Positions 5,101 through 31,844 of a stretch of DNA of 64,000 nt are shown here, piece by piece. This DNA comes from a virus. The notes under the pieces were generated by a model, which saw only the letters and a program-made list of their open reading frames with translations, was not told the origin of the DNA and made no database searches. Both the position numbers and the translations under genes were made by a program. The stretch spans positions 1 through 64,000 of IMG/VR virus record IMGVR_UViG_3300043449_001497. The stretch is one strand, 5' to 3'. Positions within the stretch are counted from its first letter, which is position 1. Every line of letters begins with the position of its first letter.

Positions 5101-8100
5101 CAGCAAGCTCGGGCTCGACGCCAAGTTCCCCGAGAAGCTTGGTGGTGTCGACCAGGAGGCGTTTGACGCGGTCCGTGCCTACCTCATGGCGACGGGAGAG
5201 CTAGAGCTCAAGGGCAAGAAGCTGGTCAAGGTCTTCGAGGAAGTCCCGGCCGCTCCGACCACGCTCGCGGGCCAGGCGGCCAAGGTCGCGCCCGAGGCCC
5301 CGCGAGTCACGATGCAGGGCCTCCAGGACGAACTTGACGACATCAGTGACGACCTCGCCCAGGTCGAGGCCGACCTCGCGACGGCCAGGGAAGACGGAGA
5401 TGACGCGGCTCTAGCGGAGTTGGCGCGCGCCGAGGAGAACCTGCTCGACCGCCGTGACGAGCTCGCGGCGCAGCTCGAGCAGGCGAAGGCAGCTCCGGCC
5501 GAGGCACCCGTGCCCGCGACTGCCCCTACCCTGCCCGACACGGAGATCCAGCAGGCGGTGACCGAGGCCAAGGCCGTCGAGGCCGTGGCGGCCAAGGTGG
5601 ACGAAGTCGCCCAGGAGGTCGCGCCCGCCGAAGCAGTTGTCGAAGCTCCGGCTCCGGCGGCTGTCGAGGCTCCGGTGAAGGCTGCCAAGCCGCCGCGAGG
5701 CAAGAAGGCAAAGGCTGCCGCTGTTCCGGCCACCGCAACCCCCGTCGAGACCGCGACGGTCGACGAGCTCCAGGCTGCCATCAACAACGTCGACGAGAGC
5801 CTGGACGAGGTAGCCGAGACCATCCAGCGCGCCGAGGACGACGCCAACGAGGCCCAGGTGACGTGGCTCCGCGGGGTGGTGGAGAAGAACCTGCGCGAGA
5901 GGAAGGCGGGACTTGAGGCACGCCTCACACGGCTCCAAGCGGCGGCCCCGCGCGATCTACGCGAGCTGCCTCCAGAGGTCCAGGCAAAGGTCGAGGACCT
6001 GGCTGGCGGTGTCTATCAGAACGTCGTCCAAGCTCTGAAGCAGCCGGATGCAGTCCGAAAGTCCCCCCAGGCGTACGCAGACTCGTACAAGGACGTTCTC
6101 GCTGAGATGTGGGACAGTCCGTACGACTTCGAGCGAGCATGGCCCGCCATGCGCGACCGCGTCGAGCTTTCGGCCGCCAACGCCCTGGACGCGGTTGAAG
6201 TCCCCGCGACGATGGAGAACCTGGGCAACCGCGCACTCTGGAAGAACGTCAAGGCCAAGGGCCGCATCGGCGCGTCGACTGGGATGCTCGAGGCTCGGGT
6301 AGGGACCGTAGAGTTCCGCATTTCGACTGTCCCCGCCGCGAAGGAAGGCAATCCGCCCGTCTTCCAAGTCATGGCGCGCGTCGGAGATGAGTTCGAGAAT
6401 CTCGGACCGAAGGCGGGCTACGCCACGCTCGAGGATGCGCTGCGCGCACTGACCCCCGCGGGCGGCAAGCCTGCCCCGCTCCGCTCGAAGATTGACTCCG
6501 TTATCAGCAGCGGCGTTCGTAAGGCGAGTATCCCGAAGAAGGGAGCTAAGCAAGCCAAGGTCGTCGAAGAAGTTGCGGAGGAAGCGCTTGACGAGGCCGT
6601 GCCAGAGCAGGTCGCGCGTCTCGAGGAAGCTGCTCCTGGCGCAGAGGAAGCGCCCGCGGTTGTGCCTGCACCGACGATGACAGGCGAGCAGTATCGTGCC
6701 AAGGCCGTGGAAGAGCTGGGCAAGATCACGCACTCTGTCGTGAAGGCCGACGGCACCAAGGTCTACGGTGTGGTCGAGGGCGACAACTTCGTGCCCAAGT
6801 ACACGCTCTCGACGTCCGAGATGCGCGACCCCACGGACGCTCTCTACTTCAAGGCGTCTCGCGGCAGCACGGCGATTGACGAGCCCGTTGCTCTGGCCAA
6901 GTCCGGCGCGCGTCCTGAGTCGCTCCAGGCGACGGTCAAGAAGATTGAGAAGCTCCCGGAAAACGCGCTCTACCAGCGTGGAGAGGTCCTCGTCGAAGCC
7001 GACAAGCTTGTGGGTCGCTTGGTCGAGGTAGAGAAGGGGAAGATCGAGTTCCTGACTCCTGAGCAGATCAAGGACCTCAAGAACCAGAACGACCCGACGG
7101 CCATCGTCACGCTCTTCCGCGGCGTGGCTGACCCCACGACGCTGCTCCACGAGGGCGCGCACTACATCCGTCGCATGGGCCTGGCTGCCGAGGACATGGA
7201 CGCCGTCACGAAGTGGATCCGTTCGCAGGGTGTCGACGTCACGCACAAGTTCGGTAACTTCGACGGTACGGCCGAAGCGGTCGAGCAGGCGGAGGAGCTG
7301 TTTGCCAGGGCATTCGAGCAGTACCTGCTCAAGGGCGAGGCCCCGGAACCCCAGCTCACCTCTCTCTTCCAGAAGGTGAAGGAGGTCTTCGAGAAGGTCT
7401 ACCGCACCATCTCGACCAGCCCGCTGGGCAAGGACATCGACCCTGATGTGAAGGCCGTCTTCGACCGCCTGTTCAAGTCCGTGCCGCAGAAGAAGCCGGA
7501 GTCGACCTTCGACCTCCTCATGCGCCACACCTTCAACAACAAGGGCATGGAGCAAGAGGGCAGCCTCACGGCGCTTGCTCGCGAGGCGAAGCGCCGTGGC
7601 ATTCCAGGTGCCACGGTGGAAGACCTCACCAAGCTCATGGTGGACGCGGGCAACAAGTACGGAGAGGGCTTCCTCGAGCAGAACGTCATCGAGTTCCCCG
7701 TCCCCGTGCTCGGCAAGGAGAAGTGGACAGGAGCCGACGTTCTCGAGCTCGACCGTCGCATCCAGATGCGCCGTAACGACTTGGAGCTGGCTCCTCTGAA
7801 GCAGGCGCTCTTCGGAGAGCCGGAAGAGGAGAAGGCGACCGAGGCAATCTTCGCGGCGCTTGAGAAGCCCAAGGGTGTGGAAGAGGGGGCGTTCTCGGCA
7901 ACGAGCCGCACGCTGGCGCGTGGGCTCACGCACACGGTCATCGGTGGTGATCTTACGGCTGAGCGCGTGATGCGGAACCTGCCTCCGGAGGTGCGCCGCA
8001 GCATCAACACCGCCTCGAACGTCATCGAGAACGGCATCGGTGACGCCATCACCGTGCTCAGCCAGGCGATCCGTGACGGCGACATGGACTTCATGTACCG

Positions 8101-11100
8101 CTACCTCTCGGGCGAGACGGGGATGGCCTACAAGACGGGCCGCCGTGTCATCTCCTCGGGTCATGAGTTCATCGGCGGGTTCCTCGACCTGTACAAGAAC
8201 GCGGGCCTCTCGCTCACAGGGGAGCAGCGAGCGCTGCTTCAGAAGTTCGCTCAGGCGGTCAACACCCGCCCGAACATCAACAATCTGAGGCTGCCCCAGA
8301 CCCGCTCCGAGGCCCTCGCAAGCCTCGTCTTCCCGGACCTGGATGCGATCCGCGAAGCGCAGGCCGCGGAAGACCTGGGGAAGGCGCCGATCCGTGCGGC
8401 GATGCAACAGGAAGCCAAGTCTATGGCCGAGGCACTCGAAAAGTTCCGCGAGCTGAAGGGCAGCGATGACCAGGGCGTTGGCAGCATGCTCGCCAAGGCC
8501 ATGCGTGGTGCGACGGAAGAGGGATCTGAGATCAGCATCAACGAGTTCCGGTTCACGGAGACCCTGCTCTACTTGGCGGGCATCACCCAGCGCGACGGGA
8601 AGTTCTTCGTCGAGGTGGGAGAGGACTACTCCAAGGCCGGACTCAAGAACGCCGCCGAGATCCTGCTTCGGGAGGCCCAGGACATCTACGGCACCGCGGA
8701 AGACCAGCTCTTCGCTCGGCGCGTCGCCATCCTGGTGGGCGCCTACGGTTCCGCGTCTCGCGCCAAGGCTGAGCTCGCGGAGCTGGGCCTGGTGCTCACG
8801 GCGGAAGAGAGGACTGCGTACAATAACTGGGCGCTAGGCTACGGGGTCACTCCTGAGATGCGGCCCCGCATCGAGCAAGTGATGCGGAAGCTCGGTGCGA
8901 ACACCACGTTCGAGCCCGACACCATCCTCGGAGCCGACGTCTACATTCCGAAGCAGGCCCGCGAGCGCATTGCGGACGCACTCAAGAAGGCTCAGTTCAG
9001 CGAGCAGAAGCTCACGAAGATGGGCGACATCTACCAGTCCATCTTCGCCTTCATGAAGAAGCGCATGACCCGCGGCAACTTCCTACTGCGCCAGCGCTAC
9101 TTCATGGTCAACACCATCGACCACTTCTTCCAGATGTCCCTCGTCGTCGGGTACGCGCCCGCGTTCCAGTCGATGTCGCGCATCGCTCTCCAGAACGCGC
9201 TTACGTCTCCGTTCACGGGGCAAGCTCTCGAGATGGGCGTGCGCGCGGTCAATCGTCTCGTTCCAGGCGCAAAGATCCCGCCCGACGTTGTGGAGAAGAT
9301 CCGCGACTTCTTCAGCCGGGGCGGCGACAAGACGGCCGGGTTCCTTCGCGAGATGATGGGAGGCTCGAAGTACCGCGTCGAGGTCAACCATGTCCTGGAG
9401 GGTCGCAACACCCCCATCGTGATCGGCGGACGAGTCACCACGGGCAAGCGGCTCCGCGAGATCTTCGTCGCAGAAGGCATCCTCGAGAGCTACAACACCC
9501 GACGCCTCGGCGCGGTTCTCCGCAAGGAAGGTACGGCGTTCATCAGCGACGGTGACGGCATCATCGAGGCGGGCATCAATGACCGCTCGCTGGGCGGCAA
9601 CGTGACCACTGCCTGGGCGCGGGTGAAGGACGCTGCAATCGACCTCTCGACCGACGTGGTCGACGACATCGGAGACGCCTGGGCCGAGCGCGAGCGCGTG
9701 GGCGCTGCCGTGACCCTCATCGAGAACGGCTACGAGCCGCGCGTGGCGTGCCGCCTCACCATCGACGCCCTCTACGACTACGCCCAGTCGATGACGAAGA
9801 TGGACCGCAACTGGTTCGTCGGCCTGCTGTTCCCCTTCTGGGCCTTCCAGAAGAACGCGAACCAGCAGTTCATCAACGTCATCGCGACCCCCTACGGCGC
9901 GTACCGGATGATGGTCATGAAGCGGTTCCGGGACCGTAGCTCTGAGCTTCTCACGGAGCTCTACTACGACGAGGTCGGCGGCGAGTTGGGCCTCGACGTG
10001 AACTCGATGCCCCAGGACATGCAGGACATGTACTACGCGGTCATGACCAAGGCGCACGAGGTGTACGGGGACGAGATCCCCGAAAACGCCAAGATGGCGC
10101 TCCGCATGGGGCTAACGGGCCGCGCTTCCGAGGTGCTCGACGGCAAGTACTACGAGCTCGATGCTGACCTGATCCGCATGCTGCGGTCGGGTGGTATCGG
10201 CGGTGTCGGCGGTGCAGGCATGAGCGACTACCTGATGCCGACCCCCAGCAAGTCCATCTTGCCTTCGTACATGCGCGAGCGACCCGGTGTGTTCCTGGCA
10301 CCCCGCCGTGACGCCGCGGTTCGTCTCTACTCGGGTCTTCGCGCGAAGAACGACGAGATGTTCTACCTCATGCTGCCCCCGGCGAGCTTCGAGGATGCGT
10401 TCAAGCACACGGCGACGGTCATGTCGACGGCGCTCCTCATGGGGGCCAACCTGACTGCGATGACCCCGGCGGGCCCGCTCCTGGGTCTCGAGGCGCGCGG
10501 TCTCGAGGGCACCAAGATCGCGGCAGCCATCCGGCCTGTTCTCGACCTGGAGCGCTCCCCCATCGCCGGGCCTGTCATCGGCATGTACGCGGAGCGAGGC
10601 TACCCCCAGAAGCTCCACCCGCTCGTGGCGTCGTTCATCATGAACACCACCGATGCTCCCATCTTGCGCGTTCCCGCGGTCAACGACCCGTTTGAAGGTG
10701 ACAACTTCATGCTCGAGATGCAGAAGCTCACCGAGGAAGGGAAGGAGGCTGACATCGCGCAGATCCTTGGCGCCGACTATGTCCGCACGGTACAGGAGCT
10801 CAACAGCAAGGAGCTGGATCCCAACGAGATCTCGACGGTCCGCGACGAGCACTTCTACCTGCCGCCGGGTGGATACTCCATCGCCTTCGAGAACGCGCCG
10901 CTGCTCGGAGAGCTCAACAAGGAGCTCCTGCTCAAGTACGGAAAGACCGCACAGGAGAAGGCCGCTTCCTCGGATACGGCGAGCCTGGGCAACCTGCTCT
11001 ACATTCTCCGCAACGCCACCGGACTCGAGGTTGCATCGGTCTCTGCTTCTCGGACGGCTCAACAGGAAGAGCCTGTCTTCTACACCAAGTCTCGCAAGCC

Positions 11101-11107
11101 CTTCTAG
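2150..11107 (+). CDS. Giant 2985-aa putative ejection/polyvalent protein with a zincin-like metallopeptidase motif
   Basis: Strong codon bias; PTTLLHEGAH (HExxH at 7148-7162) with downstream EELFARAFE; coiled-coil and Ala/Pro linkers. Confidence 0.75.
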   Translation: MSVPPRPRRVILVRPEGAMDPKTYEQVKAINESLKIQQEAEAKALEAARKPAPRAEARPSAPRAQAPAKPAAPKVVAPVQVGAPVKQTKASAASVVTPPVTDATRKSKVDDDLRQDLKLEDLYRNVGMLPPTLEAKERVNASIRALSAKTGLEPQRYKELAAIQGVDLNDLDQKAREGMPFENYRKAKEGAIGFVPADKRVAMFEDLAKDYETAEQGKIRTDKRIDLAAAKEARGTVPGLTTGYVVGGTTSEETPEVAKSGEHYYAVAEAYLKAVDKDPEVVRLVNLYGNSLASGATQKYINDRAQQLLKNKGITPSSPDAERLASLARRQALYEVLARKTVGQWTPGIFVKDVQVTDDAAAPGLFAAMAPNIELIGFNSKGDAVFRQESAAGMGLRLLDVVGVVPIPGKKLPVPIPGQSLLAGMLTKGENETYYEAASRGAQTGANWLEVALDATEGQSLPMRGAAGLVGLAGSMVHPDVTAAAGALGKAGKAYRVARINKAIAREAEPILKELVTAYQARNFDKAAELEKKLATSPTLGPRGAKGHGVVKAYNRGDIAFAQALASINPALKHLDPFLVDNLVAMVGRRGDDALTEFVYEAAGKGSPHMHFGAAAPEIAERTKEGVGTSFETYLNSGNFDRRIERIKMARDAYAKTIPKTADEALAKTFNDAVERVKGRLVDARLAQIPESELQKEIRLLQLMEEHRAALMADPKSWMDKDGLFHTALRNDPITGGDANSTWRQRTYLMDVDNTARRVNDLKSRDFEALKARDLQMFDDALEAVETNIQSRMMSAESLRRNLADKAELRITPIDILDKEMAPGTERLSPYAQASFLVTARQFSQQEMDRKSLLQAYQMLDKAFEGVASRHDMSLEDVWRDFFVKVEQGKVEMPGAGAAKAAGKPPPKPPAKLPAAPSDVPKLANVPNTPEVKAAVEKAAKKGGRARAPAAMHPRTADVVAGIPDEFKTDKLTPEAASKVMSFFSKLGLDAKFPEKLGGVDQEAFDAVRAYLMATGELELKGKKLVKVFEEVPAAPTTLAGQAAKVAPEAPRVTMQGLQDELDDISDDLAQVEADLATAREDGDDAALAELARAEENLLDRRDELAAQLEQAKAAPAEAPVPATAPTLPDTEIQQAVTEAKAVEAVAAKVDEVAQEVAPAEAVVEAPAPAAVEAPVKAAKPPRGKKAKAAAVPATATPVETATVDELQAAINNVDESLDEVAETIQRAEDDANEAQVTWLRGVVEKNLRERKAGLEARLTRLQAAAPRDLRELPPEVQAKVEDLAGGVYQNVVQALKQPDAVRKSPQAYADSYKDVLAEMWDSPYDFERAWPAMRDRVELSAANALDAVEVPATMENLGNRALWKNVKAKGRIGASTGMLEARVGTVEFRISTVPAAKEGNPPVFQVMARVGDEFENLGPKAGYATLEDALRALTPAGGKPAPLRSKIDSVISSGVRKASIPKKGAKQAKVVEEVAEEALDEAVPEQVARLEEAAPGAEEAPAVVPAPTMTGEQYRAKAVEELGKITHSVVKADGTKVYGVVEGDNFVPKYTLSTSEMRDPTDALYFKASRGSTAIDEPVALAKSGARPESLQATVKKIEKLPENALYQRGEVLVEADKLVGRLVEVEKGKIEFLTPEQIKDLKNQNDPTAIVTLFRGVADPTTLLHEGAHYIRRMGLAAEDMDAVTKWIRSQGVDVTHKFGNFDGTAEAVEQAEELFARAFEQYLLKGEAPEPQLTSLFQKVKEVFEKVYRTISTSPLGKDIDPDVKAVFDRLFKSVPQKKPESTFDLLMRHTFNNKGMEQEGSLTALAREAKRRGIPGATVEDLTKLMVDAGNKYGEGFLEQNVIEFPVPVLGKEKWTGADVLELDRRIQMRRNDLELAPLKQALFGEPEEEKATEAIFAALEKPKGVEEGAFSATSRTLARGLTHTVIGGDLTAERVMRNLPPEVRRSINTASNVIENGIGDAITVLSQAIRDGDMDFMYRYLSGETGMAYKTGRRVISSGHEFIGGFLDLYKNAGLSLTGEQRALLQKFAQAVNTRPNINNLRLPQTRSEALASLVFPDLDAIREAQAAEDLGKAPIRAAMQQEAKSMAEALEKFRELKGSDDQGVGSMLAKAMRGATEEGSEISINEFRFTETLLYLAGITQRDGKFFVEVGEDYSKAGLKNAAEILLREAQDIYGTAEDQLFARRVAILVGAYGSASRAKAELAELGLVLTAEERTAYNNWALGYGVTPEMRPRIEQVMRKLGANTTFEPDTILGADVYIPKQARERIADALKKAQFSEQKLTKMGDIYQSIFAFMKKRMTRGNFLLRQRYFMVNTIDHFFQMSLVVGYAPAFQSMSRIALQNALTSPFTGQALEMGVRAVNRLVPGAKIPPDVVEKIRDFFSRGGDKTAGFLREMMGGSKYRVEVNHVLEGRNTPIVIGGRVTTGKRLREIFVAEGILESYNTRRLGAVLRKEGTAFISDGDGIIEAGINDRSLGGNVTTAWARVKDAAIDLSTDVVDDIGDAWAERERVGAAVTLIENGYEPRVACRLTIDALYDYAQSMTKMDRNWFVGLLFPFWAFQKNANQQFINVIATPYGAYRMMVMKRFRDRSSELLTELYYDEVGGELGLDVNSMPQDMQDMYYAVMTKAHEVYGDEIPENAKMALRMGLTGRASEVLDGKYYELDADLIRMLRSGGIGGVGGAGMSDYLMPTPSKSILPSYMRERPGVFLAPRRDAAVRLYSGLRAKNDEMFYLMLPPASFEDAFKHTATVMSTALLMGANLTAMTPAGPLLGLEARGLEGTKIAAAIRPVLDLERSPIAGPVIGMYAERGYPQKLHPLVASFIMNTTDAPILRVPAVNDPFEGDNFMLEMQKLTEEGKEADIAQILGADYVRTVQELNSKELDPNEISTVRDEHFYLPPGGYSIAFENAPLLGELNKELLLKYGKTAQEKAASSDTASLGNLLYILRNATGLEVASVSASRTAQQEEPVFYTKSRKPF

Positions 11108-22449: not shown

Positions 22450-23439
22450 ATGACCACAGAGAACCCGACCGTCATGGTCGCCGTGTACGGCAAGCCGAAG
22501 AAGAAGAAGACCAGCGACGTGCTGGCCGCCTTCCCGACGGCCCTGTGCATCGGCGTCCCCAGCGCCATCACGCTCGTTGCCCAGAACGAGCTGGGCTTCA
22601 CCCCTGCCATCTACCCGACGCCGCCCCAGACGCTCCCTGAGCTCGTCGGGCTGCTCGAGTACCTGGGCCAGTCCGGCATGGCCGCGCAGTACGGCGCGGT
22701 CTTCATCGACGACGCCAGCCACATCTGCGACCGCAGCATCACGATGTGGCACGACGAGGCGCCCGTCGGCAAGAGCGGGAAGAAGGACAAGTTCTACGCC
22801 TACCAGCAGCTGAACAAGTACCTGCTCGCGCTCTCGGGCATGGCCCGCCACATGGGCATCCACCTCATCTTCACCTTCCACGAGCGCGCTCCCGGCACCG
22901 ACCAGGACGGGTTCTTCCAGCCGGGCGGTCCGTCGCTCGGCTCGAGGAAGCAGACCGAGTCCTTCCCCTCCTGGTGCGACATCAACGTCCGCGCCATGAT
23001 CGACTCGAGCTACCCCGACCCGTGGTTCCCCGGCGTCTACTTCTGCGACCCCACGTCGCCGGAGTGGGTCACGGGTGACCGCACGGGCGTGTGCTGGACG
23101 AAGACCCCCGGCAACCTGCGCGAGATCCTCCGTGCCTCCGCCGGGGGCTACAAGCTCGCGCGCGTCGCGGGGCTCGAGTGGCAGGACGACATCGCGGACG
23201 AGCTGGCGAAGATGATCGTGGAGACCGGGGACATCAACGGCTCCATCAAAAATCTTTCCCAGTCAAATCCGCGGTTTACGGACGGGACGGAACAAATCCA
23301 TCTCCGTTGGGCTTGCCAGGATGGTATTGCCCGCGCTACCTTCATGAAGCGCAAGGCGAGGAACCTCTTCGACCTCGCGCCCAAGGAAGAGCCCAAGAAG
23401 GGTGGCGGCGTTCCGCTTCCTCCCCCTCCCACGGCCTGA
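22450..23439 (+). CDS. AAA_24/Sak4-like ATPase (recombination)
   Basis: VYGKPKKKKTS deviant P-loop, VFIDD, IFTFHE; lies between the nuclease and the SSB candidate. Confidence 0.7.
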   Translation: MTTENPTVMVAVYGKPKKKKTSDVLAAFPTALCIGVPSAITLVAQNELGFTPAIYPTPPQTLPELVGLLEYLGQSGMAAQYGAVFIDDASHICDRSITMWHDEAPVGKSGKKDKFYAYQQLNKYLLALSGMARHMGIHLIFTFHERAPGTDQDGFFQPGGPSLGSRKQTESFPSWCDINVRAMIDSSYPDPWFPGVYFCDPTSPEWVTGDRTGVCWTKTPGNLREILRASAGGYKLARVAGLEWQDDIADELAKMIVETGDINGSIKNLSQSNPRFTDGTEQIHLRWACQDGIARATFMKRKARNLFDLAPKEEPKKGGGVPLPPPPTA

Positions 23440-25331: not shown

Positions 25332-28166
25332 ATGACCTACGACCCTCGCAAGTGTGGCGCTCGCTGCGACGAGTGCCCCATCGGCCCGCACGGCAAGTTC
25401 CGTGACGGGCCGTGGATGCCTGTCCCGCCCGAGACGCACGACGGCGCGAAGATGCTGGCCGTGGCCGAGATCCCCCACATGGAGGATGCGAGCCACGGTC
25501 GTCCGATGTCGGGTCGTTCCGGCCAGGAGTGGAACAACGCGCTCATGGCGCTGGGCAAGAAGCGCACGGACATCGACCTGACGCACGTCGTCGCCTGCTC
25601 TGCCGGGACGCAGCAGAACGCCTGGGAGAAGCTGACCAAGTCCATCGACAAGGAGAACCGTCGAAGGATTGCTCTAGCGCAGCCCGTGATGCCCGATCCT
25701 ATCTCGTGCTGCCGTCCGAGGCTACTCAAGGAAGCAGATCGTTACGAGAACATCTTCGCTCTCGGACGGTCCGCGGCCAACGCCCTGACGGCGAAGACGC
25801 AGTCCATCTTCGCCCTGCGTGGCGGTCCGGTGTGGGTCGACGAGAACTACAACGCCCTGATGCAGACGCCCCTGGCGGGCGAGGAGCTGCCCCCTGGTGC
25901 GGTCCGCAAGGTGTTCCCCACCTTCCATCCGGGCTTCGTGCAGAAGAGCCCAGGCTGGCGCAGCTACTGGCACTCCGACATCTCGAAGGCGTTGCGCTGG
26001 TTCAACGGTGCCCTGCGCTGGACGGAGCCTGCCCGCACGTTCAACCCGACGCCGGATGAGCTCGAGGCGTTCCTCTCCCAGGCTGCTCCGTTCTACGCCT
26101 ACGACTTGGAGACGGACGGCATCATCGCCCTGACCTGCCAGGTGCGGTCCATCGCCATCGCCATCCCCGACCTCAACGAGAACGGTCGTGCGCTGCGTGA
26201 GGGACAGGTCGAGGCGAAGCGCTGCGAGGTCATGGGTCTGAACCTATTGAGCGGCGACGGTCATAGCAGGTTCTATAGCGCCGAGGACGAGGCTCGGATT
26301 CTCGAGGTTCTACGGACCTTCTTCCTCGACGAGTCTAAGACCAAGGTCGGTCATAACGCCGGGTACTATGACCGCCTTGTCGTTGAGCAGTGGCTCGGGG
26401 TCACACCGAAGCCGCTCATCGACACGCTCTTCGGTGCCCGGTTCCGCGCGCCGGACCTGCCCAAGGGGCTGAAGACGGTCGGCTCGGTCCTCACCGACGT
26501 GGACCGCTGGGAGACGACCGAGAAGGGCGAGAGCCTGGCGCACGGCAACGTCGATGACTGGGACCGCCTCGCGTACAACTGCACCGACTCGTCCGTGAAC
26601 GCGCGCATCGTCGTGCCGCTCATGGACTCGGCGGAGCAGGCGGGTGCGTTCCGCGACCTGCCCGAGGCGCTGCGTCCGAAGAGCTGGGCGAACCGTCGCT
26701 GGGACCTCCACGAGGTCGATCACGCCACGCAGGACATGTGCGTGAACATGCACAAGATGGGCGTCTACATCGACCAGGAAGCGCGCTGGAAGATGGAGAT
26801 CGACACCAAGGCCAGCGTGCTGAAGCGGGAGAAGAACCTCTCCGTGCTGGCCGCGGAGGTCGGCATCGCTCGTCTCGACCTCAAGTCGGCAGGCGCCAAC
26901 GACGAGAGCGATGAGACTGAGGGCATCAAGCCCGGCAGCGCCGACCAGATCCGAGACCTCTTCTACGAGAACTGGAAGCTGGGCATCCCGCCCAACATGG
27001 AGCCCCGTGACTTCTACACGATGTCGGGGATGCCCGGCACCGGGGACAAGGTTCTCCGCGGTCACCTCGCAGGCGGGCGTCTCACGGCCGAGCAGGCAGC
27101 GTTCATCAAGGAGCTGCGCCTGTATCGCCGGGAGAAGAACAAGATCCTGGGCACCGTGCTGCTGCCGTTGAACCTCACGGTGAACGACCCGAAGAAGGGC
27201 ATCGTCTGGGCGCCGGACGGGCGCGTGCGCTCGACCTGGAACGCTCACGTCACGGCTCCTGGGCGGCTCTCGAGCTCAGGCCCCAACCTCCAGAACATCG
27301 GCAGCCGCAAGGGACAGGGCAAGCTGAAGACCCTGTTTGCCGCGCAGCCCGGCAACCTGCTCGTCGGAGCGGACCTGGACCAGGCGCACCTCCGCATCAC
27401 GGCCTGCTACTGGCAGATCCCGCTGCTGCTCGAGTGCTTCAGCGAGGGCAAGGACCCGCACAACACGCTGGCCCTCCAGGTCTTCGGGGACAAGTTCCGG
27501 AACTCCGACGGCTGGGGACCGGACGGGTTCAGCCTCTACAAGAAGCCGCCGGGTGGAATGGCCAAGGCGATGCGTGACGTCATGAAGACGTTCCGCTACG
27601 CCTCCATCTACTGGGCCGACCCGATGACGGTCTGGCAGGTCCTCACCTCCACCGAGGCGGACAACGGCGAGATGCCCTACCTGCACATGACCTCGAAGGA
27701 GGTCCGTCACTTCCACGAGACGTGGCTGAAGACGGAGCCGGAGTGGATGACGGCATGGGAGACGATGCAGGCTCTCTTCCGCCACCAGGGGTACATGGAG
27801 GAGCCCGTGCTGGGCCGACGCTCCGGGAACCTGAGTGACGGGAAGAAGAACGAGGTCGTGAACTTCCCCATCCTCGCAGCCGAGACGAGCATCATGCGGA
27901 TCGCCGAGCAGGCGCTCATCGAGGCGTTCCCCTGGGACTTCGAGCGCAAGCACGGTCTCATCCACCAGTGCCACGACTCCATCGCCATCGAGTTCCCGGC
28001 ACCCCCAGGGCTCGAGAAGTGGGGGCCGAAGAAGGGCGAGCCGTTGCCCGCGGAGCTCGAGGCCATCCGCAAGCGGGTCGAGGAGCTCATGACCGTGCGC
28101 GTCCCTGGCTGGGAGGTCACGATGACGACCGAGGCATCCGTCGGAAGAAACCTCAAGGAAGCTTGA
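25332..28166 (+). CDS. Family A DNA polymerase with an N-terminal family-4 uracil-DNA glycosylase-like domain and a 3'-5' exonuclease domain
   Basis: CxxC...C...C and PTFHP (UDG4); YDLETD, GHN...D and YNCTD (Exo I-III); GRLSSSGPNLQN, motif A DLDQAHLR, motif B R...KTFRYASIY, motif C HDS. Confidence 0.92.
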   Translation: MTYDPRKCGARCDECPIGPHGKFRDGPWMPVPPETHDGAKMLAVAEIPHMEDASHGRPMSGRSGQEWNNALMALGKKRTDIDLTHVVACSAGTQQNAWEKLTKSIDKENRRRIALAQPVMPDPISCCRPRLLKEADRYENIFALGRSAANALTAKTQSIFALRGGPVWVDENYNALMQTPLAGEELPPGAVRKVFPTFHPGFVQKSPGWRSYWHSDISKALRWFNGALRWTEPARTFNPTPDELEAFLSQAAPFYAYDLETDGIIALTCQVRSIAIAIPDLNENGRALREGQVEAKRCEVMGLNLLSGDGHSRFYSAEDEARILEVLRTFFLDESKTKVGHNAGYYDRLVVEQWLGVTPKPLIDTLFGARFRAPDLPKGLKTVGSVLTDVDRWETTEKGESLAHGNVDDWDRLAYNCTDSSVNARIVVPLMDSAEQAGAFRDLPEALRPKSWANRRWDLHEVDHATQDMCVNMHKMGVYIDQEARWKMEIDTKASVLKREKNLSVLAAEVGIARLDLKSAGANDESDETEGIKPGSADQIRDLFYENWKLGIPPNMEPRDFYTMSGMPGTGDKVLRGHLAGGRLTAEQAAFIKELRLYRREKNKILGTVLLPLNLTVNDPKKGIVWAPDGRVRSTWNAHVTAPGRLSSSGPNLQNIGSRKGQGKLKTLFAAQPGNLLVGADLDQAHLRITACYWQIPLLLECFSEGKDPHNTLALQVFGDKFRNSDGWGPDGFSLYKKPPGGMAKAMRDVMKTFRYASIYWADPMTVWQVLTSTEADNGEMPYLHMTSKEVRHFHETWLKTEPEWMTAWETMQALFRHQGYMEEPVLGRRSGNLSDGKKNEVVNFPILAAETSIMRIAEQALIEAFPWDFERKHGLIHQCHDSIAIEFPAPPGLEKWGPKKGEPLPAELEAIRKRVEELMTVRVPGWEVTMTTEASVGRNLKEA

Positions 28167-28191
28167 CGTGGTGGTAAGGTAGTGGTATGGT
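28163..28191 (+). promoter_or_regulatory. sigma70-like promoter
   Basis: TTGACG-17-TATGGT with TG extension, upstream of the mini-gene array. Confidence 0.65.
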
Positions 28192-28214
28192 TCTCTCGAC
28201 CAAGGAGAGACCAC

Positions 28215-28295
28215 ATGACCGAGATGATCGACCTGACGATGTGGCTGCTGGACCGCTTCGCCGACCTGGCGCGGTGGGTCGGGAGGTGGCCGTGA
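28215..28295 (+). CDS. 26-aa peptide
   Basis: AAGGAG RBS; GTGA overlap with the next gene. Confidence 0.4.
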   Translation: MTEMIDLTMWLLDRFADLARWVGRWP

Positions 28296-28591
28296 GCACG
28301 AACCCAGACGCGGCGCAGGCGTACCTGAACATGCACCTCGCCTTGGCCATCGGGAAGGGCGTGCAACTCGACGCGACGCAGACCGCCGCCATCTTCGCGC
28401 TCATCACAGACCACCGCCACGAGATTGAGGAGCTTCGCGACCGTCTCCGCGACGCACAGAAGGAGCGCGCCGCCGTGGTGGCGTGGCTGCGCGAGCAAGC
28501 CGAGACAGGTGACCCGATGCGGGCCACGGGTCGTCGGCGCATGGCAGACCACATCGAGCGCGGCGAGCATCGCCGCGAGGAGGGGGCATGA
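28292..28591 (+). CDS. Array mini-gene 1 (ERAAVVAWLR...GEHRREE)
   Basis: GGAGG RBS; shared C-terminal motif. Confidence 0.7.
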   Translation: MSTNPDAAQAYLNMHLALAIGKGVQLDATQTAAIFALITDHRHEIEELRDRLRDAQKERAAVVAWLREQAETGDPMRATGRRRMADHIERGEHRREEGA

Positions 28592-28803
28592 AGGAAGTCG
28601 GAGACCGCCCGGAAGGCGTGCTGCGGACGGTACGCGATGTGTCGCGATGCATGACAAGCGTGTACCTGAACGACGAACTCATCGGCGTCGTTTCAGATCT
28701 TCAGTTGATGCTCATGCCGCGCGACGGCGTGTCTATCGACTGGAGCGCGTGGCGTGCTGCGAAACTGACTGATGGCGAGCACCGCCGCGAGGAGGAGAAG
28801 TGA
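28588..28803 (+). CDS. Array mini-gene 2
   Basis: Ends in GEHRREEEK. Confidence 0.65.
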   Translation: MKEVGDRPEGVLRTVRDVSRCMTSVYLNDELIGVVSDLQLMLMPRDGVSIDWSAWRAAKLTDGEHRREEEK

Positions 28804-29042
28804 GCCAGATTTCTGAAGATGCCGTCCGTCTCGCCCTCGCGACCGTAAGGGAGCAGTTGGCAGCAGAGGTCACCGAGGCCATCGAGAAGGCCGTCCGCGA
28901 GGAGCGCAAAGCGACGGTGGCGTACTTGAGTGAGTGCGCGCAGGGCGGCGACACGTTCGGGCCGCGCGGTAGCGGCGACCACTTGCGGCTGCTCGCGACC
29001 AACATTCAGCGCGGCCAGCACCGCCGCGAGGAGGAAGAATGA
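28800..29042 (+). CDS. Array mini-gene 3
   Basis: ERKATVAYL...GQHRREEE. Confidence 0.7.
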   Translation: MSQISEDAVRLALATVREQLAAEVTEAIEKAVREERKATVAYLSECAQGGDTFGPRGSGDHLRLLATNIQRGQHRREEEE

Positions 29043-29332
29043 CCGTGAACGAAGGTTGTCCCATCTGCCAAGGCCGATGCTGCGAGTACGGCCTTGACGA
29101 CTACCGGGGCGCACACCGGAGCGAAGCCTTCCACACCTGCCCCTACTGCACGAACGGGACGAAGCCGACCGTGTGGACTGCCGAACAAGAGCGCGCCGCC
29201 GTCGTGGCGTACCTGCGTGACTGTGCTCACAGGGATGCGTACCGAAACCACAACCGCAACCGCGCCGAAGCGTTGTGGGACGCTGCGAACATCGTAGAGA
29301 GCGGCGAGCACCGCCGCGAGGAGGAGAAGTGA
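29039..29332 (+). CDS. Array mini-gene 4, Zn-ribbon
   Basis: CPIC...CPYC, then ERAAVVAYLR...GEHRREE. Confidence 0.7.
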   Translation: MTVNEGCPICQGRCCEYGLDDYRGAHRSEAFHTCPYCTNGTKPTVWTAEQERAAVVAYLRDCAHRDAYRNHNRNRAEALWDAANIVESGEHRREEEK

Positions 29333-29658
29333 GTGCGTATGGATACTGCCCCCGTTGCGGGGGTCTTGGAATGAGCCGCGAACGTCGGCAAAACGGCAAC
29401 GACCGTTGCGAGAACGGGCATGGCTACCCGTCCGTGTCTGCCGTCGCTAACCCCCTGCTGCCCGTGTCTGCCGACATCACCGCGCTCGTCGCGGAGGAGG
29501 AGCGTCTGCGCGAGGAAGGGGGCAGGGAGGAGCGCAAGGCGACGGTGGCGTGGTTGCGCGACGCCGCAGATACGCCCGACAATCACGCACGGAGCCTCCT
29601 GCTTCGTATCGTTGATGGTCTTGAACGCGGCGAGCACCGCCGCGAGGAGGAGCGATGA
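29329..29658 (+). CDS. Array mini-gene 5, Zn-finger
   Basis: CPRC...CENGH, then ERKATVAWLR...GEHRREE. Confidence 0.7.
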   Translation: MSAYGYCPRCGGLGMSRERRQNGNDRCENGHGYPSVSAVANPLLPVSADITALVAEEERLREEGGREERKATVAWLRDAADTPDNHARSLLLRIVDGLERGEHRREEER

Positions 29659-29891
29659 ACGTGTGGGCGGCAACCTTCGCGCTGTTGGCGTGCGGGCTTG
29701 TGGCGTGGGTCTGGTGGACGGTCAAGCTCGACACGCAGCGCATGATCGAGGACTTCCAGCGCATGTTTCCGGGACGCTGCGCGGTATGCGCGTTCCACCG
29801 CTGTGGCGTGATGGAGGGGCACGCGCGCGGCCCCGTTGAACCGCACAACTGCATCGAACGCGGAGACCACCACCGCGAGGAGGAGCCATGA
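29655..29891 (+). CDS. Array mini-gene 6, TM segment plus Cys/His
   Basis: N-terminal hydrophobic helix; ends in IERGDHHREEEP. Confidence 0.65.
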   Translation: MNVWAATFALLACGLVAWVWWTVKLDTQRMIEDFQRMFPGRCAVCAFHRCGVMEGHARGPVEPHNCIERGDHHREEEP

Positions 29892-30223
29892 CCGAGGAAC
29901 AGATCGAGCTCGGGCGGCGCGCCGTGGCGTGCAAGGGCTGGAGGTGGATGGACGGTATGCTGACGGATGAGGGATGGCGTGTGCGTCCGTCGGATCTCCC
30001 GCTCGGATGCGTTGCGCTCCCCGACCTCACCGACCCCGCCACGCTGGGGTGCCTGCTCGCGCTGGTGCGTGAGGCGCACGGGCAGACGACGCTGTCTCCC
30101 GTGTCTCGCGGGCGGCGTCTATGGTGCCTCGCGGACTTCGGTACGACGGCGTTGCAAGGGGAAACAGAAGCCGAACTGCTCGTCGCCGCGCTGGAGGCTG
30201 CGCCATGCACGACAACACCGTAA
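29888..30223 (+). CDS. Phage hypothetical protein
   Basis: 'PDLTDPATLGCLLALVREA' motif; ATGA coupling. Confidence 0.65.
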   Translation: MTEEQIELGRRAVACKGWRWMDGMLTDEGWRVRPSDLPLGCVALPDLTDPATLGCLLALVREAHGQTTLSPVSRGRRLWCLADFGTTALQGETEAELLVAALEAAPCTTTP

Positions 30224-30396
30224 GCGCGATCTTCTTCGGGTTCGTTGTCCTCTTCCTCATCGGCCTCGGCATCTGGGCGGGGTCGAGTTCGTACCACAAG
30301 GACACCTTCAAGTGTACGAACGCTTGCGCCGGGGCGCACAGCATCGAGTTCAACAACGACTGCTACTGCCAGTTGGAGCCTCGTCATGAACCGTGA
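30205..30396 (+). CDS. Small membrane protein
   Basis: GGAGG RBS, TM helix, Cys-rich tail. Confidence 0.5.
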   Translation: MHDNTVSAIFFGFVVLFLIGLGIWAGSSSYHKDTFKCTNACAGAHSIEFNNDCYCQLEPRHEP

Positions 30397-31231
30397 AGAA
30401 CTGCTGGCCAAGCACGGCCAGCCTGTCCAGGTGCTCGACCACGGTCACGTTCGCCTCGTCGACGTGATGGGCGACGACGAGCGCGTGGAACAGGTCGCTC
30501 GACTTTCCTACCAGCAGGGAACCCGCAAGGTGTCCGAAACCCGGAGCTTGCTGCGTTACCTCATCAGGCACCGCCACACGTCTCCGCTGGAACAGGCCGT
30601 CATCACGCTCGACATGAAGATGCCGATCTTCGTGGCGAGGCAGCTGGTGCGCCACAGGACGCAGAGCATCAACGAGCTGAGCGGTCGGTACTCCGAGATG
30701 CCGGAGGAGTTCTACGTCCCGGACGAGTTCTACTCGCAGTCGACGACGAACAAGCAGGGCCGGGGCGAAGAGCTGGACCCACGCGTCTCGGTGTACTCGC
30801 GCCAGGACGCGCGCCAGTGTGCGGAGAACGCCTTCGACGCCTACCGAGAGATGCGCGCACGCAACGTCGCCAGGGAGACGGCTCGCATGGTCCTGCCTCT
30901 CTCGACGTACACGCAGTGGTGCACGACGATGAACCTGCACAACCTGCTCCACATGCTGGAGCTGCGCCTCGACCACCACGCCCAGTGGGAGTGCCGCATG
31001 TACGCGAATGCCATCGCGCTCATCGTGGCGGACTGGTGCCCCCTCATCTGGGAAGCGTTCATCGACTACCGCCTGGACGCGTGCACCTTCTCCCGTGAGG
31101 AGGTGAAGTACATCCGCGAGCGCATCGCGATGGACGGGCTGGACCTGCCCAACGACGACGATCTGACCGCGAAGACGAACCTCTCCTACCGCGAACGCGG
31201 GGAGTTCCTACTCAAGCTGGGGGTAATATGA
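30386..31231 (+). CDS. thyX: Flavin-dependent thymidylate synthase
   Basis: HTSPLEQ, RQLVRHR...NELSGRY, ETARMVLP and HAQWE motifs. Confidence 0.95.
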   Translation: MNREELLAKHGQPVQVLDHGHVRLVDVMGDDERVEQVARLSYQQGTRKVSETRSLLRYLIRHRHTSPLEQAVITLDMKMPIFVARQLVRHRTQSINELSGRYSEMPEEFYVPDEFYSQSTTNKQGRGEELDPRVSVYSRQDARQCAENAFDAYREMRARNVARETARMVLPLSTYTQWCTTMNLHNLLHMLELRLDHHAQWECRMYANAIALIVADWCPLIWEAFIDYRLDACTFSREEVKYIRERIAMDGLDLPNDDDLTAKTNLSYRERGEFLLKLGVI

Positions 31232-31374
31232 CGCCGAAGCCGTGGACGACGAAGGAGCTCGCCAAGCTCCATGAGATGAAGGCAGCTGGTGCCTCGCACG
31301 CCGAGGTCGCTGCCGCGCTGAACCGCACGCTGAAGTCGGTGAAGCACATGTACCTCAAGACGAAACCGGAATGA
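31228..31374 (+). CDS. Small HTH protein (GcrA N-terminal/Myb-like)
   Basis: Translated by eye: PWTTKELAKLHEMKAAGASHAEVAAALNRT. Confidence 0.55.
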   Translation: MTPKPWTTKELAKLHEMKAAGASHAEVAAALNRTLKSVKHMYLKTKPE

Positions 31375-31844
31375 AGACCAAGCACATCGAGGTCCGCATC
31401 GAGCAATGCATCGCCCTGGCCAAGCTGTCGCCGTGTCCGCGGCGGCAGTTCGGCGCCATGCTCATCGACCCGAAGACCAACTCCATCCTGGCAGACGGCT
31501 ACAACGGCACGTCCAGGGGCAGCCCGCATCCCCTGTGCGGCGGGCAGACCTGCGAGCGGGAGGGCATCGTCTCGGGCACCCGGCTCGAGCTTGGCTGCCA
31601 CCATGCCGAGAGCAACGCCCTGGCGAACGCCGCACGCCGCGGTGCCTCGACCGAGGGTGCGTGGCTCATCGTGTCGGGAGAGCCTTGTCTGATGTGCGCC
31701 AAGCAGCTATACCACGCTGGCATCGTCCGGGTATACTGCGTGAGAAACGGGTATGCCGGGGGCGGTGCAGGGCCAGACTTCTTGCTCTCGCAGAACGTCA
31801 GCCTCGTCTACATCAATGGACCCACAGACCCGAGACTCACATGA
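31371..31844 (+). CDS. dCMP deaminase
   Basis: C.RRQFGA, GYNG, HAESNA and PCLMC motifs. Confidence 0.92.
   Translation: MKTKHIEVRIEQCIALAKLSPCPRRQFGAMLIDPKTNSILADGYNGTSRGSPHPLCGGQTCEREGIVSGTRLELGCHHAESNALANAARRGASTEGAWLIVSGEPCLMCAKQLYHAGIVRVYCVRNGYAGGGAGPDFLLSQNVSLVYINGPTDPRLT

Follow-up and report, generated by a model that had tools for sequence, protein, structure and literature searches.

The question raised by the locus analyzed here is how a row of tiny, seemingly unrelated genes can come to end in nearly the same DNA sequence. The locus belongs to an uncultured freshwater phage (IMG/VR record IMGVR_UViG_3300043449_001497, 72,743 bp), of which positions 1 to 64,000 constitute the window, that is, the whole stretch of DNA analyzed in this work. 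Within it, six consecutive genes on the + strand (28292-29891) end in a 24-nt block (hereinafter block B), CGCGGCGAGCACCGCCGCGAGGAG or a variant with at most 3 changes, which encodes RGEHRREE, carries the Shine-Dalgarno sequence of the next gene and is followed, after one or two codons, by an ATGA or GTGA stop/start overlap. The initial annotation, which noted this shared junction, interpreted the array as an integrase-free cassette system in which recombination at the junction adds or shuffles translationally coupled genes and/or as a set of proteins with a common C-terminal docking tag. The observation is confirmed by our analysis and the recombination interpretation is supported, with two corrections: there is a second, intragenic junction (block A, GAGCGCGCCGCCGTGGTGGCG, encoding ERAAVVA), such that parts of genes are shuffled as well as whole genes, and the recombination is inferred from comparative mosaicism rather than seen in progress, with no dedicated system shown. 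The relevant features are the following.

22450-23439, + strand: Sak4-like single-strand annealing protein, the candidate recombinase (its role here is inferred)
25332-28166, + strand: DNA polymerase, the conserved anchor gene used to find relatives
28163-28191, + strand: sigma-70-like promoter in front of the array (TTGACG-17-TATGGT, TG-extended -10)
28215-28295, + strand: g0, a 26-aa ORF conserved in relatives, the first gene after the promoter, overlapping g1 by GTGA
28292-28591, + strand: g1, helical N-terminus plus module; block A at 28463-28486, block B core at 28559-28582 with a CAT variant
28588-28803, + strand: g2, no block A, ending in KLTDGEHRREEEK; block B core at 28771-28794
28800-29042, + strand: g3, coiled-coil-like N-terminus; block A variant (ERKATVAY) at 28902-28925, block B core at 29010-29033 (GQHRREE)
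29039-29332, + strand: g4, Cys-rich (zinc-ribbon-like) N-terminus; block A at 29189-29212, block B core at 29300-29323
29329-29658, + strand: g5, CxxC zinc-ribbon-like N-terminus; block A variant (ERKATVAW) at 29530-29553, block B core at 29626-29649
29655-29891, + strand: g6, N-terminal hydrophobic helix and Cys/His-rich middle, ending in CIERGDHHREEEP; block B core at 29859-29882 with 3 changes
29888-30223, + strand: g7, a frequent downstream neighbor of the last block B (MTEEQ... start), with its own nucleotide-conserved block at 30017-30076

The 24-mer GGCGAGCACCGCCGCGAGGAGGAG occurs 6 times with at most 3 mismatches, in all cases on the + strand (at 28562, 28774, 29013, 29303, 29629 and 29862), whereas shuffled sequences gave 0 matches and no further copies were detected in the whole virus record. 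Each copy lies at the 3' end of one of the six ORFs and encodes GEHRREE, GQHRREE or GDHHREE. Four of the six genes (g1, g3, g4 and g5) additionally carry the upstream helix ER(A/K)A(V/T)VA(W/Y)L, which includes block A. The N-termini are unrelated to each other, and no Pfam or PHROG family above noise was found for any of the eight proteins; scanning 34 modules likewise yielded no match above the curated cut-offs (best E 0.05), and the homologs are all unnamed or annotated as hypothetical proteins. A search of the ESM Atlas produced best scores of 0.83-0.84 to unnamed clusters, which is below a meaningful level. The promoter-like site is the only one in 27500-31500 (mean of 0.4 in shuffles), and its -35 element, CTTG[AC]CG, is invariant in 8 of 8 aligned relatives; no terminator-like site was detected on the + strand, and the window has no tRNA genes. 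Searches of 50,697 phage records gave no DNA match for the 2.2-kb region, no protein match for g1 at E 0.01 and no match for the polymerase at E 1e-20, so that neither host nor taxon could be assigned. The 10 hits in genome contigs are to MAG bins labelled with about eight different phyla, which we interpret as phage contigs swept into bins rather than as a host signal.

To determine whether the blocks are conserved at the protein or at the DNA level, we examined codon usage in 63 non-redundant modules from loci found by peptide-level or polymerase searches, which are therefore unbiased for codons. Block A codons are near-fixed (Val GTG in 62 of 63 against 34% genome usage, Ala GCC in 50 of 55 against 35%, with P ranging from 2e-7 to 4e-28), as are block B codons (Gly GGC in 61 of 63 against 52%, Arg CGC in 57 of 61 against 53%), and 27 of 37 GEHRREE peptides use the exact 21-mer, against 5.4% expected (P 1e-26). 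Given that the modules are not phylogenetically independent, these binomial P values overstate significance, and the codon baseline comes from this phage only; the real argument is the internal control, namely that adjacent conserved residues use codons freely. Thus, the Ala three codons before IER is GCC in 18 of 53 (P 0.6), the Arg after block A is CGC in 28 of 48, and the Glu of IER is GAA in 37 and GAG in 24 of 61.

These observations bear on the possibility that this is an ordinary paralogous family in which the C-terminal helical hairpin and its tail form a docking or oligomerization domain that brings variable N-domains to one partner, with the mosaicism being a by-product of the usual phage recombination wherever sequences happen to be alike. 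In favor of this view, the AlphaFold model of the module predicts a confident two-helix hairpin (residues 2-17 and 20-35, mean pLDDT 90.1), and a profile of the module identifies 1764 cluster representatives at E of 0.001 or better, with the module being, by our reading, C-terminal in all but 4 of the 150 listed. Furthermore, the Ala before IER is conserved with free codons, so protein-level selection does act, and distant members retain IERGEH but have other tails (loci L131, L140, L152 and L014; here and below, L numbers denote related loci on uncultured phage contigs). However, protein-level selection alone does not explain near-fixed synonymous codons that end sharply at the block edges. 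The residue before Gly varies as R/S/C, which are the NGC codons, and the residue after Gly varies as E/G/W/K/L/Q/D. The GEHRREE tail is the only low-confidence part of the model (pLDDT averaging about 55) and is attached to at least ten unrelated protein families that lack block A, and no partner is known; a homodimer prediction for the 44-aa module (score 0.22 against a mark of 0.42) is not evidence either way. We therefore consider this explanation unlikely, although a docking role for the tail remains possible.

If the blocks are recombination joints, content and order of the genes are expected to differ between relatives, and this is indeed the case. Among the 15 loci with 79-96% identical polymerases, g0 is conserved in 12 (60-87% identity in tblastn searches). 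Nevertheless, the closest relative, L084 (polymerase 96% aa identity), has one module gene between g0 and thyX where the window has six plus g7, and in L029 the cassettes lie in the order g5-linker, g3, g6, g2. Orthologs of g2 in L059, L025, L047 and L029 carry the same tail, whereas in L040 the same type of zinc ribbon as in g5 is joined directly to the tail, without block A. Across 1.42 Mb of loci, there are 152 unique-context copies of block B with at most 4 mismatches, compared with 0 in a reversed-sequence control; all 152 lie in open frames, 140 have a stop 1-2 codons later, and 139 have ATGA/GTGA. The polymerase relatives at 56-58% identity (19 loci) have no copy of block B with 4 or fewer mismatches, and L068 and L073 have no comparable junction repeat.

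We then compared 90 unique modules with 90-nt flanks in 4005 pairs, calling a zone similar at 0.75 or more; only the similar calls are reported because unrelated GC-rich 90-mers align at 0.55-0.65. Of the 97 pairs that are similar in at least one zone, only 2 are similar in all three, whereas 23 share only the upstream flank, 22 only the linker between the blocks and 39 only the downstream flank; 4 share both flanks but not the linker. Of the 16 multi-member linker clusters, 15 are joined to at least 2 different upstream clusters and all 16 to at least 2 different downstream clusters. Thus, the sequence upstream of block A, the linker and the gene downstream of block B assort almost independently. 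Explicit junctions are also apparent: L017 and L038 are 96% identical upstream and 100% downstream, with the linker replaced (81 nt against 39 nt), whereas L056 and g4 of the window have identical linkers (81 of 81 nt) and unrelated flanks. The stretch of g4 from block A through the linker to block B is 97.8% identical over 136 nt to L056, whose polymerase+g0 is 79.5% identical; L096 shares 29301-29892 at 97.0% but g0 at 79%; and L044/L126 share 28784-29333 at 92.9% but the polymerase at 76%. Of the 35 HSP ends inside the array, 27 lie within 6 nt of a block, against 26% expected (P 3e-10).

Because all relatives are metagenomic contigs, and Logan unitigs of the likely source run break at every block, the mosaic could in principle result from assemblers switching between co-occurring phages at the repeats. 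This appears highly improbable given that the blocks, at 21-33 nt, should be shorter than reads and than the large k-mers of final assemblies, that identical arrays recur in independent assemblies of different samples (L059/L062/L015, L061/L087 and L065/L089), that all window cassettes have similar depth in the likely source run (14.7-20.7), and that codon fixation does not depend on assembly. In freshwater and drinking-water metagenome contigs, the blocks are 10-30 times deeper than the flanking sequence. In these contigs, which do not resolve individual reads, the joints between block A of g1 and block B of g5 carried other letters between the two sides and hence represent other family members rather than deletions of this phage; no recombination event was observed directly.

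An alternative reason for codon fixation would be an RNA-level translation element in block B, either a GC-rich 7-bp hairpin (CGCGGCG/CGCCGCG, loop AGCAC) abutting the Shine-Dalgarno sequence or a binding site for a factor that controls termination-reinitiation at the ATGA overlap, analogous to the start-associated sequences (SAS) of Cluster K mycobacteriophages (PMC3203893). The block holds GGAGG at the right distance from the start, 89.8% of stem cells can pair, the hairpin is the predicted minimum-energy feature in 6 of 6 window copies, and it folds better than all but 2.8% of shuffles. However, there is no covariation (0 of 7 pairs change on both sides, and 439 of 500 shuffles pair at least as well), the fold z-scores of the six 56-nt contexts run from 0.0 to -1.9, and the common R-to-K variants (CGC AAG) break the stem. 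Block A self-folding and a duplex of block A with block B are no better than shuffles (14% for the duplex). Moreover, block A is equally codon-fixed but lies 100-170 nt from any start, so that this doubtful reading leaves half of the phenomenon unexplained.

What, then, could carry out the exchange? The record, rated 100% complete, has no match to PF00589 (the control was detected in 14 of 14 genomes), PF00239 or PF00078, that is, no integrase, resolvase or reverse transcriptase was found. In contrast, a Sak4-like annealing protein is encoded 5 kb upstream (Pfam AAA_24 at 30.2 bits with a cut-off of 27; phrog_124, 'Sak4-like ssDNA annealing protein', E 2.4e-10). An integron-like, site-specific system, in which an unrecognized recombinase acts on the block B hairpin, would be compatible with the alignment of promoterless cassettes behind one conserved promoter-like site, with the inverted repeat in the junction and with the many ORFs of this genome that have no family assignment. 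We nevertheless consider such a system very unlikely because, in addition to the lack of a detectable tyrosine or serine recombinase, the junction is 24 nt of coding sequence with only a 7+7 nt inverted repeat, as opposed to an attC site, typically a non-coding imperfect palindrome of tens of bases, and because a second, non-palindromic junction (block A) behaves in the same way.

Taken together, these findings suggest, with a probability of about 0.7, that the locus is a hyperplastic early-gene region in which small genes are assembled from interchangeable segments joined at two short, in-frame DNA junctions with near-fixed nucleotides. Block A encodes the start of the first helix of the predicted C-terminal helical hairpin, and block B encodes the tail, predicted to be unstructured. 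The comparisons indicate that homologous exchange at these blocks has repeatedly recombined, among related phages, the piece from a gene start to block A (the N-terminal domain), the linker between A and B, and whatever gene follows B. Because both joints are in frame, and B carries the ribosome-binding site and the stop/start overlap, every recombinant stays translatable and coupled to the single upstream promoter-like site. We infer that the exchange is carried out by general annealing-type recombination, probably by the Sak4-like protein of the phage itself, and that the synonymous sites stay fixed because cassettes with perfect blocks are the ones that keep being exchanged, much as the ends of a mobile element are conserved, with the Shine-Dalgarno constraint adding to this on the last 6 nt; codon fixation as a cause and as a consequence of recombination cannot, however, be separated with these data.

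The closest analogy appears to be the PeSL 'mobile regulatory cassettes' of T4-type phages (PMC2839356; PMC4122927), in which short motifs repeated at the borders of small non-essential ORFs in hyperplastic regions recombine, without a dedicated recombinase, to cause the insertions, deletions and replacements that distinguish close relatives. The array described here resembles PeSL shuffling but does not belong to that class: PeSLs are intergenic promoter-plus-terminator units, whereas these repeats lie inside coding sequence and in frame, carry a ribosome-binding site and a stop/start overlap instead of a promoter, include no transcription-terminating stem-loop (the 7-bp hairpin has no T-run), and form two nested junctions, one of them intragenic. 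The SAS/ESAS elements, the function of which is unknown, similarly are asymmetric, contain the Shine-Dalgarno core, lie a few bases upstream of start codons in one orientation among non-structural genes and sometimes overlap the end of the upstream gene. However, their 13-bp consensus, GGGATAGGAGCCC, has 0 matches with up to 2 mismatches in the window, they number 11-19 and are spread over half a genome, as opposed to six copies in 1.6 kb that encode a shared tail, and no shared peptide or recombination role is reported for them. In the gp38 adhesins of T-even phages (PMC3157838), conserved motifs within one protein (GRM) delimit hypervariable segments (HVS) that are 'easily interchanged'; this is a likeness of design only, because gp38 is a virion adhesin with glycine-rich motifs and has no sequence relation to these small early proteins, in which one junction is also a gene-to-gene joint. 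Finally, phage-encoded Rad52-like or Sak4-like proteins recombine short or diverged homologies (PMC3945230; PMC5928155; PMC5499656), but those studies concern exchange at whatever homology exists, whereas here specific short sequences are kept near-identical at synonymous sites and recur as the breakpoints.

A more far-reaching possibility, which we put forward only tentatively, is that the two blocks are a community-wide 'adaptor standard', shared by many otherwise unrelated freshwater phages, including contigs of 130-160 kb, through which N-domains, specificity linkers and whole translationally coupled genes circulate as selfish cassettes; these would ride on general annealing recombination, with ends conserved for mobility in the way transposon ends are but without any element-encoded enzyme.

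How phage mosaicism arises, by homologous exchange at short conserved 'linker' sequences or by random illegitimate joining followed by selection, is a long-standing question, and this locus offers a sharply defined natural case for the first route, with two junctions of 21-24 nt with near-fixed synonymous sites, breakpoints that fall on those junctions, and a design that keeps the reading frame and translational coupling intact. It extends the PeSL idea from intergenic regulatory cassettes to in-frame, intragenic domain shuffling. It also defines a large uncharacterized family of small early phage proteins (1764 representatives at 50% identity), the biochemical role of which is unknown; the combination of a conserved, predicted two-helix scaffold with a variable middle and a variable N-domain, expressed early next to replication genes, suggests a family of variable-specificity binders of host or phage targets and makes these proteins candidates for variable-specificity host-interaction factors.

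The stretch represents the first 64 kb of a 72,743-bp IMG/VR virus record that is rated 100% complete and has 64-68% G+C. Downstream of the gene for a 944-aa DNA polymerase, there is a sigma-70-like promoter site that is followed by eight small genes, each overlapping the next by ATGA or GTGA:

25332-28166, DNA polymerase (944 aa)
28163-28191, sigma-70-like site
28215-28295, + strand, g0
28292-28591, + strand, g1
28588-28803, + strand, g2
28800-29042, + strand, g3
29039-29332, + strand, g4
29329-29658, + strand, g5
29655-29891, + strand, g6
29888-30223, + strand, g7

The genes g1 to g6 each end in the repeat described in the initial annotation, with 6 matches at no more than 3 mismatches compared to 0 in shuffled sequences and no further copy in the whole record; g1, g3, g4 and g5 additionally share the motif ER(A/K)A(V/T)VA(W/Y)L. 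The observation is confirmed as it was originally described. None of the eight encoded proteins has a Pfam or PHROG family. The first gene, g0, is a 26-aa ORF (MTEMIDLTMWLLDRFADLARWVGRWP) located directly behind the conserved promoter, the -35 element of which is invariant in 8 of 8 relatives; g0 is retained at 60-87% identity in relatives whose downstream arrays differ completely, and could encode a leader peptide or a small membrane peptide. Within g5, an exact 12-nt direct repeat, CCGTGTCTGCCG (29432-29443 and 29462-29473), with the copies 30 nt apart, gives rise to ...PSVSAVANPLLPVSAD... and is probably a small internal duplication. Elsewhere in the window, a single 2985-aa ORF with GC3 of 0.84 occupies positions 2150-11107 on the + strand.

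The same junction is widespread. The exact 21-mer occurs in 51 stretches of IMG/VR contigs, and in every one of these it is read as GEHRREE at the 3' end of an ORF. All fetched loci (hereinafter denoted by L numbers), 1.42 Mb in total, were scanned for the 24-nt core CGCGGCGAGCACCGCCGCGAGGAG with at most 4 mismatches, which yielded 152 copies in unique contexts, compared to 0 in a reversed-sequence control. All 152 copies lie in open frames, 140 of the 152 have the stop codon 1-2 codons later, and 139 of the 152 have an ATGA/GTGA overlap. In a few cases (L024:6646-6678 and L043, with the same tail, and L107:4106-4138), the block is read through, such that the ORF continues 5-12 codons past the usual stop (e.g., ...GEHRREEETRLRAEDRCLP); these look like recent losses of the stop/start overlap. 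A search with a profile of the C-terminal module identified 1764 cluster representatives at E of 0.001 or better among 1.84 billion. All named homologs are annotated as 'hypothetical protein', the strings GEHRREE and AAVVAWL occur in no paper of the searched library, and no cultured phage matches the region, g1 or even the polymerase. Contigs carrying the module (L090-L099) are filed in MAG bins labeled Myxococcaceae, Pirellulales, Chloroflexota, Phycisphaerales, Opitutaceae, Actinomyces, Pseudomonadota and Sericytochromatia, and one of these, L090, a 70-kb contig, also contains a polymerase+g0 stretch that is 79.9% identical in DNA. These look like phage genomes swept into bins, so the labels say nothing about the host.

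Most members of the family share the layout ERAAVVAWLR (which includes block A), a variable linker of about 10-40 aa, and then (A)xxIERGEHRREE, which includes block B. To assess conservation at the nucleotide level, we took 63 non-redundant modules (module proteins less than 80% alike) that came only from loci found by peptide-level patterns or through the polymerase, so that the sample is unbiased for codons. In block A, Ala is encoded by GCC in 50 of 55 cases (genome usage, 35%), Val by GTG in 62 of 63 (34%) and another Ala by GCG in 54 of 58 (40%); in block B, Gly is encoded by GGC in 61 of 63 cases (52%) and Arg by CGC in 57 of 61 and 49 of 54 (53%). Of the 37 GEHRREE peptides, 27 use the exact 21-mer, whereas codon usage predicts 5.4%. 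The edges of the blocks are sharp: the Leu and Arg right after block A use five and four codons, respectively, the Glu of IER is GAA in 37 and GAG in 24 of 61 modules, and the conserved Ala three codons before IER shows ordinary usage, with GCC in 18 of 53. These neighboring residues serve as an internal control because shared descent or protein-level selection would have kept their codons too. Furthermore, amino acid changes inside block B are often non-conservative but keep bases: the residue before Gly is R, S or C (CGC, AGC and TGC), and the residue after Gly is E, G, W, K, L, Q or D.

The blocks are also mosaic junctions. We compared the upstream flank, the linker and the downstream flank in all 4005 pairs of 90 unique modules with 90-nt flanks, after collapsing exact duplicates of the whole context. 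Of the 97 pairs that are similar (0.75 or more) in at least one zone, 23 share only the upstream flank, 22 only the linker, 39 only the downstream flank, 4 both flanks but not the linker, 4 the upstream flank and the linker, 3 the linker and the downstream flank, and 2 all three zones. Of the 16 linker clusters with at least 2 members, 15 are joined to at least 2 different upstream clusters and all 16 to at least 2 different downstream clusters. Explicit alignments show the breaks at the blocks. Between L017 and L038, the sequences are 96% identical upstream and 100% identical downstream, but an 81-nt linker is replaced by an unrelated 39-nt one, and between L011 and L114, there is 98% identity on both sides, with the linker replaced. 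Conversely, L009 and L010 have linkers that are 94% identical and unrelated flanks, and the linker of L056 is identical to that of g4 at 81 of 81 nt, again with unrelated flanks.

Comparison with the array itself reveals a similar patchwork. L096 shares 29301-29892 (block B of g4 through g5 and g6) at 97.0% but g0 at 79%; L044/L126 share 28784-29333 (g3 and g4) at 92.9% but the polymerase at 76%; and L056 shares 29189-29324 at 97.8% but polymerase+g0 at 79.5%. Of the 35 HSP ends inside the array, 27 lie within 6 nt of a block, against 26% expected; most of the rest lie 7-8 nt away, and one sits at a locus end. A comparable plan might extend to g7, which has its own nucleotide-conserved block (30017-30076) encoding about LPDLTDPATLGCLLALVREA. 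This block is 88-97% identical over 60-64 nt in L086, L112, L128, L138, L147 and L096, where the rest of g7 is not alignable; depth in metagenome contigs is 10-30 times higher there (bins 29984-30074 and 30166-30256), and joints replace the stretch between 30076 and 30179. It may be a second family built of a fixed block and a variable segment.

The content and order of the cassettes are not fixed. The closest relative, L084, with a polymerase 96% identical in protein and polymerase+g0 91% identical in DNA, goes from g0 through a single module gene to thyX and the dCMP deaminase. Relatives with polymerases about 80% identical carry different sets of one to a few module genes, and in L029, the recognizable cassettes lie in the order g5-type linker, g3, g6, g2, with other genes between them. 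The polymerase relatives at 56-58% identity (19 loci) have no block B copy, and the two of these that were examined, L068 and L073, have no comparable repeats. In some relatives (L065:6126-7054, also L064 and L089), the polymerase carries an in-frame insert of about 310 aa, at the site equivalent to window 27601/27602, that starts with Cys, ends with ...VHN followed by Cys and has an HNH-like motif, and is therefore intein-like, whereas L081 has a different insert of about 1.1 kb at the site equivalent to window 26357/26360. The polymerase in the window lacks the intein-like insert.

At least ten families without block A end in the same DNA-encoded tail. Examples include the g2 family (...AKLTDGEHRREE), Ala/Trp/Asp-repeat proteins (...RMLACGEHRREE), the g6 family, a Cys-rich family (...WVPEHQRGDHRREE) and a zinc ribbon like that of g5, which in L040 is joined directly to ...KRGEHRREE. 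Acquisition of a tail by unrelated genes is what recombination at block B predicts.

We further considered whether the conservation of the blocks could be explained at the protein or RNA level. An AlphaFold2 model built from the module alignment contains two helices (residues 2-17 and 20-35) at mean pLDDT of 90.1, whereas the GEHRREE tail averages about 55. The hairpin is therefore probably a real fold, and distant members keep IERGEH with other tails, but the tail itself looks unstructured. At the RNA level, block B can form a perfect 7-bp hairpin, CGCGGCG/CGCCGCG with the loop AGCAC, abutting the SD, which had not been noted in the initial annotation. On 125 distinct copies, 89.8% of cells pair; however, 0 of 7 pairs show a change on both sides, 439 of 500 shuffles pair at least as well, the fold z-scores of the six window contexts run from 0.0 to -1.9, and the common R-to-K variants break the stem. 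We therefore regard the hairpin as a property of the sequence rather than a demonstrated structure. Pairing between blocks A and B is no better than in shuffles. Given that block A is as codon-fixed as block B but lies far from any start codon, a purely translational explanation covers only half of the facts.

The record has no tyrosine integrase, no serine recombinase and no reverse transcriptase. It does encode an SNF2-type helicase, a Sak4-like annealing protein (Pfam AAA_24 above the cut-off; phrog_124, E 2.4e-10), a Rad50/SbcC-like ATPase with weak matches, and a DUF927 primase-helicase, which surround the array. Phage annealing proteins are reported to recombine short or diverged homologies and to generate mosaicism (PMC3945230, PMC5928155, PMC5499656). 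Parts of the stretch are present in 24 runs from 21 studies, all of which are freshwater, drinking-water or aquatic metagenomes represented by contigs. In the 4 of these 24 runs that were compared with the window, depth jumps 10-30-fold at block A (bin 28437-28527) and at block B (bin 29620-29710). The unitigs of the likely source run break at each block, but their depths are uniform at 14.7-20.7, which fits one genome. The joints between blocks carry other letters between the two sides, so they are other family members.

The nearest described mechanism is the PeSL-mediated modular shuffling in T4-type phages (PMC2839356), although the promoter and terminator that define PeSLs are absent here. 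The SAS elements (PMC3203893) share position and orientation with the junction but not sequence, whereas the GRM/HVS design of gp38 (PMC3157838) shares the logic of a scaffold with variable segments. The array does not qualify as an integron with respect to either the integrase or attC. In contrast to the intergenic PeSLs, the junctions here are two in-frame blocks with near-fixed synonymous sites in a tandem array of translationally coupled mini-genes. Based on these comparisons of contigs, without read-level evidence for or against ongoing exchange, we infer that exchange occurs by annealing-type homologous recombination, probably through the Sak4-like protein, and that the nucleotides of the blocks are kept because exchangeability depends on them, with the SD constraint added on the last 6 nt. 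The proteins encoded in the array are likewise only inferred to be variable-specificity early factors.
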